In this document: piece after piece, positions 12,325 through 61,023 of the stretch
How positions within the stretch are numbered: the stretch's first letter is position 1
Layout of the letters: the number at the start of each line of letters is the position of its first letter
The notes under the pieces: generated by a model
Databases searched by the model: none
Told to the model about the DNA's origin: nothing
What the model saw: the letters and a program-made list of their open reading frames with translations, nothing else
NCBI GenBank assembly: GCA_024232855.1
Contig: JAAEPH010000056.1
Coordinates: forward strand, 1-61,023
Source of the DNA: Gammaproteobacteria bacterium
GTDB lineage: Bacteria > Pseudomonadota > Gammaproteobacteria > GCA-001735895
Direction: 5' to 3'
Length of the DNA: 61,023 nucleotides
Program-made: the position numbers and the translations under genes

Positions 12325-12401
<77 letters not shown>

Positions 12402-27202: not shown

Positions 27203-27287
27203 TGGTGCCGATGGCCGGACTCGAACCGGCACAGCTTTCGCCACTACCCCCTCAAGATAGCGTGTCTACCAATTCCACCACATCGGC
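27203..27287 (-). tRNA. leuU: tRNA-Leu (GAG)
   Basis: GCCGATGTGGTGGAATTGGTAGACACGCTATCTTGAGGGGGTAG...GGTTCGAGTCC...GGCACCA; long variable arm; follows secG. Confidence 0.97.
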
Positions 27288-39771: not shown

Positions 39772-39947
39772 TTGTCACAGCAGGTAGTTAAAAGAGGTTC
39801 TCGGTAGAGTAGGGGCCAGGCGAAACCTGGCCCCTACTCTACCGAGAACCTGTCCGGGAAGCATCCGCGCCTCTGCGCCTCCGCGAGAACCTTCCTGGTA
39901 AATGTCCGCGCCTCCGCGAGAACCTGCCCGGGAGCATCCGCGGTCTA
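39772..39947. mobile_element. Degenerate MITE/REP composite with group II intron DVI palindrome (core 39804-39842) and tandem CGAGAACC units
   Basis: 57-bp palindrome at 39795-39851; flanks resemble both ends of the element at 41589-41836. Confidence 0.8.
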
Positions 39948-42527: not shown

Positions 42528-42628
42528 GGTTCTCAGCTAAGGTTCTCGGTAGAGTAGGGGCCAGGTTTCGCCTGGCCCCTACTCTACCGCCTCTGCGAGA
42601 ACATTACCGGGGAAGCATCCGCGGGCTA
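42528..42628. mobile_element. Degenerate MITE/REP composite with second DVI palindrome (core 42549-42587)
   Basis: GGTTCTCG|GTAGAGTAGGGGCCAGG-TTTCG-CCTGGCCCCTACTCTAC|CGCCTCTGCGAGAAC. Confidence 0.8.
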
Positions 42629-58626: not shown

Positions 58627-59937
58627 ATGAGCAATACGCAGGACCATGTACGGTGGTTTCGGGATGCGGCGCCTTATATAAAGGCGCATCGCAAGAAAAC
58701 CTTTGTCGTCATGATTTCGGACGAGGTGATTTACTCGGAGCGATTCATCGGCCTGGTGCACGATATTGCGCTGCTCAACCATCTCGGTATCAAGCTTGTT
58801 ATTCTGCACGGCAGCCGCAGCAGCATCGATTCCCATCTCGCCAGCAATAACCTGGAAGCGCATTATCATCAGAACATACGCATTACCGATATCGAATCGC
58901 TGCCCTACGTGGTGCAGGCGATCAATGCCGTCAAAACCCACTTAGAGTCGCAACTTTCCACGGGCCTGCCAAATACACCGATGTCCGGTTCGGAAATAGC
59001 CCTGGCCAGCGGCAATTTTGTAACCGGCATGCCGCTCGGTGTCATCGACGGCGTCGACATGCAGCATTCCGGCAAAGTACGCTATATCAGGCACGAGGCG
59101 ATAAAGGAATTGCTCGATCTCAACCACGTGGTGCTGTTGTCAAACCTGGGGTACTCTCGCACCGGCGAAGTTTTCAATTTACCGACCGAGGAACTGGCCG
59201 GGGAGGTCGCGCGCGCGCTCAGGGCCGACAAGCTGATTTACATCCATGAAGGCGCGCGCAACGGCGAAAAACAGGCCTCTACCCTGTCGACCGCCGACTG
59301 CGAGGCATTGCTGCAACAGCCGGACACGAGCGATGACCTGAAAAGCCTTTTGCACCAGGCAAAGCTGGCGATTCAGGCGCAGGTCAAACGGGTCCACCTC
59401 ATCGATCAGCAGGTCGATGGCGGTTTGCTGCTGGAACTGTTTACCCGTGACGGCTATGGAACCATGATCACGAACCTGTTTTACGAGGGTAACAGGCCGG
59501 CCAGCATAGAGGATATCGGCGGCATCGTCAGCCTCATAGAGCCGCTCGAAAACAGCGGTGTACTGGTGGCCAGATCACGCGAACAAATGGAACTGCAAAT
59601 CAGGCATTTCCAGGTTATCGAAAAAGACGGCATGATTATCGCCTGCATCGCCTGCATTCCCGATGAAGAAGCAAAGGTTGCCGAAATTGCCTGCCTGGCG
59701 GTACACCAGGGCTATCAGCGCACCGGGTTGGCCAGCCAATTACTGCAAATCGCAGAGGATCGGGCGCTGAAACAGGGCGTGAATCGACTTTATACCCTGA
59801 CGACTCGCACCTCGCACTGGTTTATCGAACACGGTTTCAATGAAGACCGTAACTTCGAGATACCGGCCGCCAAACGCGGTAGCTACAACCCCAAACGAGG
59901 TTCGAAGATACTCTTGAAGTCACTAAATGTCTTATGA
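58627..59937 (+). CDS. argA: Amino-acid N-acetyltransferase (N-acetylglutamate synthase)
   Basis: WFRDAAPYIKAHR, LLELFTRDG, C-terminal GNAT domain (LTTRTSHWF, YNPKRGSK). Confidence 0.97.
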   Translation: MSNTQDHVRWFRDAAPYIKAHRKKTFVVMISDEVIYSERFIGLVHDIALLNHLGIKLVILHGSRSSIDSHLASNNLEAHYHQNIRITDIESLPYVVQAINAVKTHLESQLSTGLPNTPMSGSEIALASGNFVTGMPLGVIDGVDMQHSGKVRYIRHEAIKELLDLNHVVLLSNLGYSRTGEVFNLPTEELAGEVARALRADKLIYIHEGARNGEKQASTLSTADCEALLQQPDTSDDLKSLLHQAKLAIQAQVKRVHLIDQQVDGGLLLELFTRDGYGTMITNLFYEGNRPASIEDIGGIVSLIEPLENSGVLVARSREQMELQIRHFQVIEKDGMIIACIACIPDEEAKVAEIACLAVHQGYQRTGLASQLLQIAEDRALKQGVNRLYTLTTRTSHWFIEHGFNEDRNFEIPAAKRGSYNPKRGSKILLKSLNVL

Positions 59938-60835
59938 TCTGACCAATTACCTGGTAATAGGCGTCTCCTCGCGCGCACTGTTCGACCTCAGTCTCGAGAA
60001 CGAAATCTACGAGAATGAAGGCCTGGAGGCCTACTGCCAGTATCAGCTTGAGCATGAAAACGACGTTCTCAAACCCGGCACCGGGTTCGCCCTGATCGAG
60101 GCAATGCTCGCCATCAACAACATCGATCCCGGGGTACGCCGCACTGAGGTCGTCATTATTTCTCGAAACTCGGCAGACACCAGTTTGCGCATTTCCAATT
60201 CGATCGACGATCACAAGCTCGATATTACGCGCGCCGCCTTCACCGGTGGGGAACCGGTTGCCAAGTACCTGAATGCCTTTGAGGTCGACCTCTTTCTATC
60301 CGCGACCGAGGAGGATGTTCAGGCGGCGGTGGAGTCGGATGTTGCGGCTGGCCTGATCTACGACGGCCCCAGCCGCGACCGAAGCGATCCGTTACAACAG
60401 ATCAGAATTGCCTTCGACGGCGATGCGGTACTTTTTTCCAAGGAGTCGGAAATGATTTACCAGCAACAGGGGCTCGAGGCTTTTATCGACCACGAGCAAA
60501 AAAACGCCCAGAAGCCGTTACCCGAAGGCCCCTTCGCAAAACTGCTGAAGACGCTGTCATTTCTACAATTCGACCTCAACAGCAGCAACCGGCAATCCAG
60601 TCCGCCCATCCGTACCGCGCTGGTCACCGCCCGCAACAGCCCCGCTCACGAGCGGGTCATCCGCACCCTGCGCACCTGGAAGGTGCGCATCGATGAAACC
60701 TTTTTTCTCGGCGGCGTTCCCAAGCACAAGATCCTTGAGTCTTTCTCGCCGCATATCTTTTTCGATGATCAACATCAACATTGCGAAGGGGCATCCCGGG
60801 TAGTGCCGACGGCGCGCGTGCCGCACAAGGACTAG
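59927..60835 (+). CDS. 5'-nucleotidase (cN-I-like HAD family)
   Basis: LVIGVSSRALF, RIAFDGDAVLF, ALVTARN, PHIFFDDQ. Confidence 0.93.
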   Translation: MSYDLTNYLVIGVSSRALFDLSLENEIYENEGLEAYCQYQLEHENDVLKPGTGFALIEAMLAINNIDPGVRRTEVVIISRNSADTSLRISNSIDDHKLDITRAAFTGGEPVAKYLNAFEVDLFLSATEEDVQAAVESDVAAGLIYDGPSRDRSDPLQQIRIAFDGDAVLFSKESEMIYQQQGLEAFIDHEQKNAQKPLPEGPFAKLLKTLSFLQFDLNSSNRQSSPPIRTALVTARNSPAHERVIRTLRTWKVRIDETFFLGGVPKHKILESFSPHIFFDDQHQHCEGASRVVPTARVPHKD

Positions 60836-60891
60836 CCCCGCATTTCTCACCACCGGATCGACGGCGCGGGACTACTCAATAAAGGTTCTCG
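60832..60891. mobile_element. End of a MITE/REP composite forming the intron 3' exon
   Basis: Reverse complement closely matches 41777-41836; starts at the CTAG containing the nucleotidase stop. Confidence 0.8.
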
Positions 60892-61023
60892 GTAGAGTAG
60901 GGGCCAGGCGAAACCTGGCCCCCCTCGTCAAACGCAGCATGCGGCTTTCCCGCACTACGCTTTCCTGCTGCCTTCACAATAGAGCTATCGCAAGGGAATT
61001 TAGCAGTCAGAGCTGCAACAAGC
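60892..61023 (-). mobile_element. Group II intron 3' end (domains V and VI); remainder outside the window
   Basis: DV AAGCGTAGTGCGGGAAAGCCGCATGCTGCGTTT has the AGC triad, GAAA loop and 2-nt bulge. DVI GAGGGGGGCCAGG-TTTCG-CCTGGCCCCT-A-CTC has the bulged A and ends in AC. Confidence 0.92.

Follow-up and report, generated by a model that had tools for sequence, protein, structure and literature searches.

The window, by which we mean the whole 61,023-nt stretch that was analyzed, is the entire contig C56 of a 550-contig genome bin (G000) of a gammaproteobacterium. Toward its right end lie a 5′-nucleotidase gene (59927–60835), one arm of a gene-less MITE (roughly 275 bp, its inverted repeats long) and, on the reverse strand, the 3′-most 132 nt of a group II intron (60892–61023). 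The terminal CTAG of this host MITE (60832–60835) overlaps the TAG stop of the 5′-nucleotidase gene. Elsewhere in the window are two 39-nt palindromes, hereafter called scars, and two tRNA genes on the reverse strand (12328–12401, 62.5 bits; 27206–27287, 51.3 bits, with a long variable arm). The features on which the analysis draws, each followed by the evidence for it, are listed below.

39804–39842, reverse strand: scar 1, a 39-nt perfect palindrome (flanked by inverted 3′-exon motifs)
42549–42587, forward strand: scar 2, a 39-nt palindrome (its right flank begins one inverted-repeat unit earlier, with CGCCTCTG...)
60832–60891, no strand assigned: outer arm of the host MITE (sequence; absent at the site in relatives)
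60883–60891, reverse strand: first 9 nt of the 3′ exon, CGAGAACCT, which form the inner part of the MITE inverted repeat (alignment of copies)
60892–60929, reverse strand: domain VI hairpin and 3′ splice site, the intron ending in ...CUAC (Rfam alignment, MFE fold)
60898, reverse strand: bulged branch-point A, 7 nt before the intron 3′ end (MFE structure)
60930–60962, reverse strand: domain V, with an AGC triad including a G-U wobble, a bulge and a GAAA tetraloop (RF00029 alignment, fold)
60963–61006, reverse strand: 44-nt spacer from the IEP stop to domain V, the 3′ side of domain IV (alignment to the relative)
61007–61023, reverse strand: end of the RT/maturase ORF, L L Q L followed by TGA, truncated by the contig end (relative's IEP, tblastn)
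C295:856–878, on another contig: matching MITE arm, sharing a 16-mer with the arm in the window

The intron terminus and its full-length relative

A preliminary description of the window, made from its letters, had read canonical domains V and VI with a precise 3′ junction at this position, and the Rfam match and the fold bore this out base for base. The covariance-model search that it had suggested returned a match to Intron_gpII (RF00029) at 60964–60892 on the reverse strand, with 40.1 bits and an E-value of 2e-4, which is only barely at the gathering score of 40. The 75-nt segment of domains V and VI has a folding energy of −45.5 kcal/mol (z = −5.84), which no sequence among 200 shuffles equaled. 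Domain V is of normal length, and the stem of domain VI (60926–60895) is perfect apart from the single bulged A. The 9-nt start of the 3′ exon, CGAGAACCT, is kept after almost all copies of the intron.

To place these 132 nt within a whole intron, metagenome contigs were scanned with the intron head, which gave three loci (L055, L056 and L057). The results showed that L056:3001–5012 is a complete intron of 2012 nt, that L057 holds a second copy at a different locus with 0 mismatches to the first, and that L055 holds a third head. The flanks of the three loci are 84–89% identical to contigs of the genome studied here, so we assign the loci to a congener. The intron at L056 matches the D1–D4 family RF02005 (D1D4-6) with 48 bits and the model of domains V and VI with 39.4 bits. 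The 132 nt of the window correspond to its positions 1880–2012 with 91.7% identity, the spacer falling at positions 1897–1940 or thereabouts. The ribozyme part of the full-length intron amounts to 638 nt (522 + 116).

The ORF of this relative (L056:3523–4896) has 457 codons and matches RVT_1 (3.3e-34) and GIIM (9.5e-14) and no other Pfam domain; the RT/maturase thus has no endonuclease domain. Its C-terminus reads ...VSWYAHLYKQLGLLQL-stop (YKQLGLLQL) and lies 44 nt before domain V. In the window, LLQL-TGA stands in frame at 61021–61007, and since the ORF of the relative ends alike and at the same distance from domain V, this frame is the true end of the RT/maturase, as the preliminary description had supposed. 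Two more pieces of the protein could be recognized among the contigs. In tblastn, residues 424–450 of the relative matched the intron copy on C6, which extends further upstream, with 92.6% identity, and C174 carries a 45-aa RT piece that agrees with the protein of the relative at 100% identity. Within this genome, the visible RT/maturase comprises residues 134–178 and 424–457 only. A 457-aa protein from a public metagenome, P0123, has its last 33 residues exactly as in this genome and differs from a 46-residue stretch of the RT piece on C174; in that search no whole IEP exactly matching the lineage of this genome was found. The IEP family is large: of the 8000 candidates that were scored, 5272 had E ≤ 1e-100, and many of its members come from contigs close to 2 kb in length. 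When the 33-aa tail peptide was compared by BLASTP with the C-terminal half of the IEP from Paraburkholderia phymatum, no alignment resulted, a question that the full-length relative later settled.

Contig C231 (992 nt), an open RT frame throughout, was considered as the gene of this intron and rejected, being only 33% identical to the real IEP; its relatives (four loci, among them L028 from genome G219) match D1D4-6 at 91–160 bits and have a different C-terminus. C231 belongs to another intron family and is 63% identical to an RT in G192.

Copies in the genome and the two ends of the window's intron

In the whole genome, RF00029 gave 11 matches, 7 of them at or above the cut-off. All 7 are copies of the tail seen in the window, and the remaining 4 belong to other intron families. 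The 132 nt recur at the ends of contigs C32, C536 and C49 (100% identity) and C40 (99%); a further tail lies 120 nt inside C6 (98%), and the last 87 nt of the intron lie inside C515. Four of the seven tails are 100% identical over the 132 nt. With the 9 conserved exon bases the common stretch is 141 nt, which is the overlap between neighboring contigs, and the window stops at the intron because the assembler was unable to cross a near-identical multi-copy repeat. The tail ends five contigs of the assembly and the head ends two, which explains part of its fragmentation. The occurrence of identical copies at different loci suggests, as far as sequence can tell, recent mobility. The copy on C6 has a 1-nt deletion at C6:141/142 that was seen in no k=31 contig of the source run and is perhaps a minor variant or an assembly error.

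The heads emerged when the sequences directly downstream of each 5′-exon motif GYGCCTCYG were listed. Three such junctions with GUGUGUCAGG... were obtained, on C295, C465 and C174, in which E1 is joined to GUGUG; these heads are identical to each other over 135 nt and 96–97% identical to that of the relative. The D1–D4 match on C174 scores 27.8 bits. A first clustering of contig ends had shown no intron heads among the 40 families listed. A DNA search with the 132 nt matched 0 of the 78 other genomes of the family, and a scan with a 31-mer of domain V gave 0 matches in metagenome contigs and one in genome contigs, L023, which proved to be an unrelated 5′-truncated intron with the same domain V.

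Other group II remains were observed in the genome at C186:56–130, C93:56–130, C59:508–581, C15:16044–16118 and C272:270–440. They include two further tail families (34 and 33.5 bits), a tail on C59 that directly follows a complete copy of an abundant MITE, an intron with RT and GIIM at the end of C15 and, on C272, a fragment of a GUGUG head with a D1D4-4 match of 35 bits. A 14-copy element was also noted at 14 contig ends (e.g., C515 right and C547 left), where it starts with TAGAAAACGCAGTATCG right after ...TTAAACC.

The preliminary description had proposed a search to the right for the GUGYG 5′ end. A GUGUG end was found on another contig, C295, which synteny places adjacent to the window. 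The right end of C295 carries the inner part of the MITE, the 5′ exon and then 135 nt of intron head (GUGUGUCAGG...). In all four congeners compared (G055, G008, G048 and G003), the sequence of C295:853→288, reversed and containing dksA, comes directly after the 5′-nucleotidase gene, and C222 comes after the C295 stretch in the gene order. None of the four has either the MITE or the intron between dksA and the 5′-nucleotidase gene; one of them holds an unrelated repeat at that site. Read on the dksA strand, the order is therefore dksA, MITE arm, ...GCGCGCCTCTG followed by the GUGUG... head, an unassembled gap, the tail ending in ...CUAC followed by CGAGAACC, MITE arm, and the stop codon of the nucleotidase gene. 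The comparison supports the view that the C295 head and the window tail represent two ends of one copy inside one MITE of about 275 bp; the adjacency rests on gene order in the relatives, with no read or contig spanning it. A circularly permuted intron, with domains V and VI upstream of domains I to IV, was rejected, since synteny gives the head and then the tail on one strand, and the standard order in the full-length relative contradicts it as well.

Similar pairings were obtained for other copies, counting only alignments of at least 250 nt for C465 and C174 and of at least 200 nt for the C536 set. C465 was paired with C49 in all three relatives; C174 was paired with C40 in 3/3, with 1.0–1.3 kb of the relatives' DNA unmatched between them; and C137 was paired with C32 in both of two. 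C469 was paired with C536 in one of two relatives and stops about 40 nt short of the expected junction, the second relative giving no alignment of at least 200 nt for the neighbor of C536.

The target site and its recognition

The preliminary description had placed the intron in a non-coding repeat, and this repeat can now be named as the inverted repeat of the MITE. The insertion point separates ...GCGCCTCYG from CGAGAACC some 60 nt inside the MITE end and occurs twice in each MITE, once in either arm. In the MITE, the 3′ strand of the inner stem serves as the 5′ exon, which puts the site at the foot of the inverted-repeat stem. The genome contains 168 free sites (87 with CTCTG and 81 with CTCCG); free sites in which GCGCCTCYG is joined to CGAGAACC number 104.

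The EBS1 hairpin loop at intron position 240 reads CAGAGA in this genome, where the lineage's EBS1 is known from one copy only (C174), and CGGAGA in the congener. All four heads in this genome are preceded by CUCUG and all three heads in the relative by CUCCG. CAGAGA can pair with YCUCUG and CGGAGA with YCUCCG, the pairing extending over 5–6 bp. A one-base change in EBS1 thus tracks a one-base change in IBS1, which, judged from the sequences, is a compensatory change. The idea of a repeat-targeting lineage, put forward in the preliminary description, is sustained by seven tails, three heads, 168 free sites and this EBS1/IBS1 co-variation. Mobility would begin with pairing of the EBS1 loop CAGAGA to the YCUCUG motif in the MITE inverted repeat, after which the intron RNA, by analogy with known group II introns, would reverse-splice between ...GCGCCUCUG and CGAGAACC. 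Since the protein has no endonuclease, we propose that the cDNA may be primed by nascent DNA at the replication fork; reliance on replication-fork primers is described for endonuclease-less introns (PMC4424553). Beside scar 1, window positions 39795–39930 hold tandem pieces of the MITE inverted repeat (GCGCCTCYG units and repeated CGAGAACC) and form a nest of MITE fragments.

Introns of class C (IIC) have a small ribozyme of about 400–450 nt, often a CGC triad, and a short IBS1 after a stem-loop. The intron studied here resembles them in that its protein has no endonuclease domain and in its insertion at the 3′ foot of an inverted-repeat stem; unlike them, it has a ribozyme of 638 nt, EBS1–IBS1 pairing of 5–6 bp, an AGC triad and a domain V of normal length. 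The argument against class C in the preliminary description holds insofar as the AGC triad and the normal-length domain V were observed; it covers that part only. Compared with solved structures, the protein of the relative was nearest to GsI-IIC (7.4e-57), followed by LtrA (1.8e-40) and T.el4h (1.8e-37), a ranking that says little in favor of IIC because the solved set (IIA, IIB, IIC) includes no protein of class D, E or F. According to PMC4424553, IIC introns insert at terminators and attC sites.

The closest parallel in behavior is RmInt2 of Sinorhizobium meliloti GR4, a class D relative of RmInt1 without endonuclease, which the account in PMC4615759 places in the inverted repeats of ISRm17, an element that offers it two sites per copy on opposite strands. 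Measured against that account, both are endonuclease-less introns of about 1.9–2.0 kb that home to the inverted repeats of a multicopy transposable element and choose their target by EBS/IBS pairing; in our case the host is no IS but a gene-less MITE with about 168 free sites. The resemblance to the class D introns RmInt1 and RmInt2 is one of behavior only, that is, homing to transposon inverted repeats. A Pseudomonas putida intron was found at REP sequences in 2 of 9 copies (PMC1525189).

Resemblance in sequence was seen with an intron of about 1.98 kb on plasmid pBPHY02 of P. phymatum STM815 (NC_010627.1, approximately 385395–387371). Its domain V region is 91.7% identical over 59 nt, it shares the 5′ end of GUGUGUC plus hairpin, the first hairpin showing a compensatory change, pairing is seen between its EBS1 loop and the 5′ exon at its own site, and its RT is 69% identical to the C174 fragment over 42 aa. 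Unlike our intron, it has a long domain VI of about 85 nt, and its best D1–D4 family is D1D4-4 (109 bits), whereas that of the full-length relative is D1D4-6 (48 bits). Its insertion point directly follows domain V of a different intron, and its RT gene is split in the annotation. A Sinorhizobium plasmid RT, its identity unverified, matches the N-terminal half of the P. phymatum RT at 38.5%. This junction, at positions 1125–1205 of the locus extracted from NC_010627.1 (L024), represents an intron-in-intron arrangement: the RT C-terminus of the other intron lies upstream, and a hairpin immediately precedes the insertion site on its 5′ side.

State of the copies, scars and significance

Intron positions 270–920 and 1059–1792 are absent from every contig of the genome bin, so no intact RT gene of the lineage is visible in this organism. 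The copy on C174 jumps from position 269 to 921, a deletion of 651 nt. At C334→C6 and C137→C32, a second, abundant MITE stands directly upstream of the last ~220 nt of the intron, with no 5′ part. This MITE is bounded by a TTAG/CTAG that falls at intron position 1792, immediately ahead of codon 424 of the 457; no copy of it lies within 60892–61023 of the window. The abundant MITE (C334:10486–10591 and many contig ends) is about 106–170 bp long with ends CTAG-CCCGGAGAATTCATAAATAT. Within the bin, BLAST gives 148–217 matches along its length, and 120 contig ends carry it; for these reasons we consider it a main cause of the fragmentation into 550 contigs. The abundant MITE and the host MITE of the intron both start with CTAGCCCG, and their similar ends hint that one transposase may serve both.

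In the k=31 contigs of the source run, a 210-nt tail contig has a depth of 201, against 44 for a single-copy flank. It is fed mostly by contigs with an end of the abundant MITE (depths 78 and 91), and a depth of about 36 enters it exactly at the MITE boundary. These values are per-contig k-mer depths among the contig pieces listed, rough and not copy numbers; they suggest that most tails carry the abundant MITE and that perhaps one does not.

We lean toward the view that the copy in the window, although both its ends are present, is defective, with the MITE before codon 424, a deletion or both, and that to move it would need the RT of another copy. About 3.8 of some 4.5 tail copy-equivalents are fed by MITE-end contigs, of which the 5′-truncated loci C334–C6 and C137–C32 account for only two; the only head that extends further, on C174, has the 651-nt deletion, and the bin holds no interior sequence of the intron. 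Against this, the depths are rough and give no copy numbers, about 0.8 copy-equivalent branches off precisely at the boundary of the MITE, as expected of an uninterrupted copy, and the interior may have been binned out as a high-coverage repeat. The alternative that the window's copy is an intact, autonomous intron of 2.0 kb with the full gene of 457 codons, collapsed in the assembly, is considerably less probable. Its head and tail are present and identical to other copies, which fits recent mobility, intact copies exist in the congener, and the public-metagenome protein shares the C-terminal 33 residues of this genome exactly. However, the share free of the MITE at codon 424 is at most about one copy-equivalent, for which four both-ended or unresolved loci compete, and the deletion in the C174 head and the missing interior weigh against this alternative too.

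That the window holds a solitary 3′ fragment and the C295 head is part of something else seems very unlikely. Two other tails, on C6 and C32, are indeed such fragments, but in all four relatives synteny sets the intron-bearing end of C295 against the end of the window, and the two MITE arms match in a 16-mer with only 8 occurrences in the genome, as compared with 163 for the general arm motif. A chance fold of a palindromic repeat unrelated to introns, to which the recurrence of the last 31 nt in palindromic repeats and the borderline Rfam score might have pointed, is refuted by the 91.7% identity to the 3′ terminus of an intron that is complete, having a GUGUG head, a D1–D4 Rfam match, an RT/maturase gene and an in-frame IEP C-terminus.

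The 39-nt palindrome of the scars has three parts, namely the terminal 17 nt of the intron as reverse complement, the domain VI loop, and the same 17 nt in direct orientation. It occurs at five loci, two of them in the window, with outer arms of the MITE inverted on both sides. Two further scars retain both ends of the intron. The one on C194 joins the first 12 and the last 26 bases, overlapping in CAGGTT, between both exons, and the one on C515 fuses GUGUG to the last ~93 nt. Three kinds of footprint can be distinguished, namely those of 32 and of 98 nt that keep both intron ends and the 39-nt palindromes derived from two 3′ ends. The two scars in the window contain the last 31 nt of the intron together with the 3′ exon, in agreement with the earlier suggestion that the intron is their source, and are best read as probable decay products of it. 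The palindromic events appear to be independent, since the subtypes of the MITE arms vary among the scars.

As to their origin, the intron may have invaded both arms of a MITE, a situation known for RmInt2 and ISRm17 (PMC4615759), and slippage between the direct repeat GGGGCCAGG of the two inverted domain VI hairpins would then delete everything between. A tentative and somewhat doubtful scenario is that doubly invaded MITEs repeatedly collapse into 39-nt palindromes by slippage at the 9-nt GGGGCCAGG, while copies with the MITE at codon 424 spread with RT supplied in trans. Snap-back of cDNA was rejected, because the flanks are complementary for 8–9 nt only, with mismatches within this stretch in two scars and arms of different MITE subtypes beyond it. 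One founder mini-MITE transposing five times is unlikely given the different subtypes of the flanking arms. In a limited search of the literature on group II introns with REP or MITE, which is no proof of absence, no such footprints were found.

The family may accordingly be pictured as decaying in this genome, with about four tail copy-equivalents that would carry the abundant MITE before codon 424, one copy without positions 270–920, two tails without 5′ parts, and seven micro-scars. Decay of an intron family by truncation is described for the fragmented RmInt1 copies of S. meliloti genomes in PMC4496777; unlike the decay described there, that seen here also leaves footprints of 32, 98 and 39 nt that retain one or both termini, and involves a nested MITE at a fixed codon. 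MITE nesting in a self-splicing intron is likewise a feature of the "MITEtron", a MITE inside a group I intron in dsrA of Ca. Thiomargarita nelsonii, a repeat-rich gammaproteobacterium (PMC4853749). In contrast to that case, the intron here belongs to group II, its RT/maturase ORF is interrupted by the MITE, and the intron is in turn housed by another MITE.

Taken together, the window very probably ends in the 3′ 132 nt of an endonuclease-less group II retroelement of about 2.0 kb, whose head is on C295, whose site is a MITE between dksA and the 5′-nucleotidase gene, and whose family is decaying. RmInt2 and RmInt1 already provide examples of endonuclease-less introns that live on inverted repeats of a multicopy transposable element, and this finding leaves the accepted view of group II intron function unchanged. 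The present case stands out by its clean EBS1/IBS1 co-variation across two congeners, by the MITE at a fixed RT codon, and by the footprints. A borderline covariance-model match at a contig edge can, as this case indicates at the level of sequence, be a real and recently active retroelement. The co-variation provides a clean natural example of a target-site change, in which one base of EBS1 tracks one base of the repeat. If the slippage scenario is true, new hairpin repeats would be seeded within MITEs by group II introns in decay. Footprints of the three kinds may serve as a marker of past intron invasions in other genomes.
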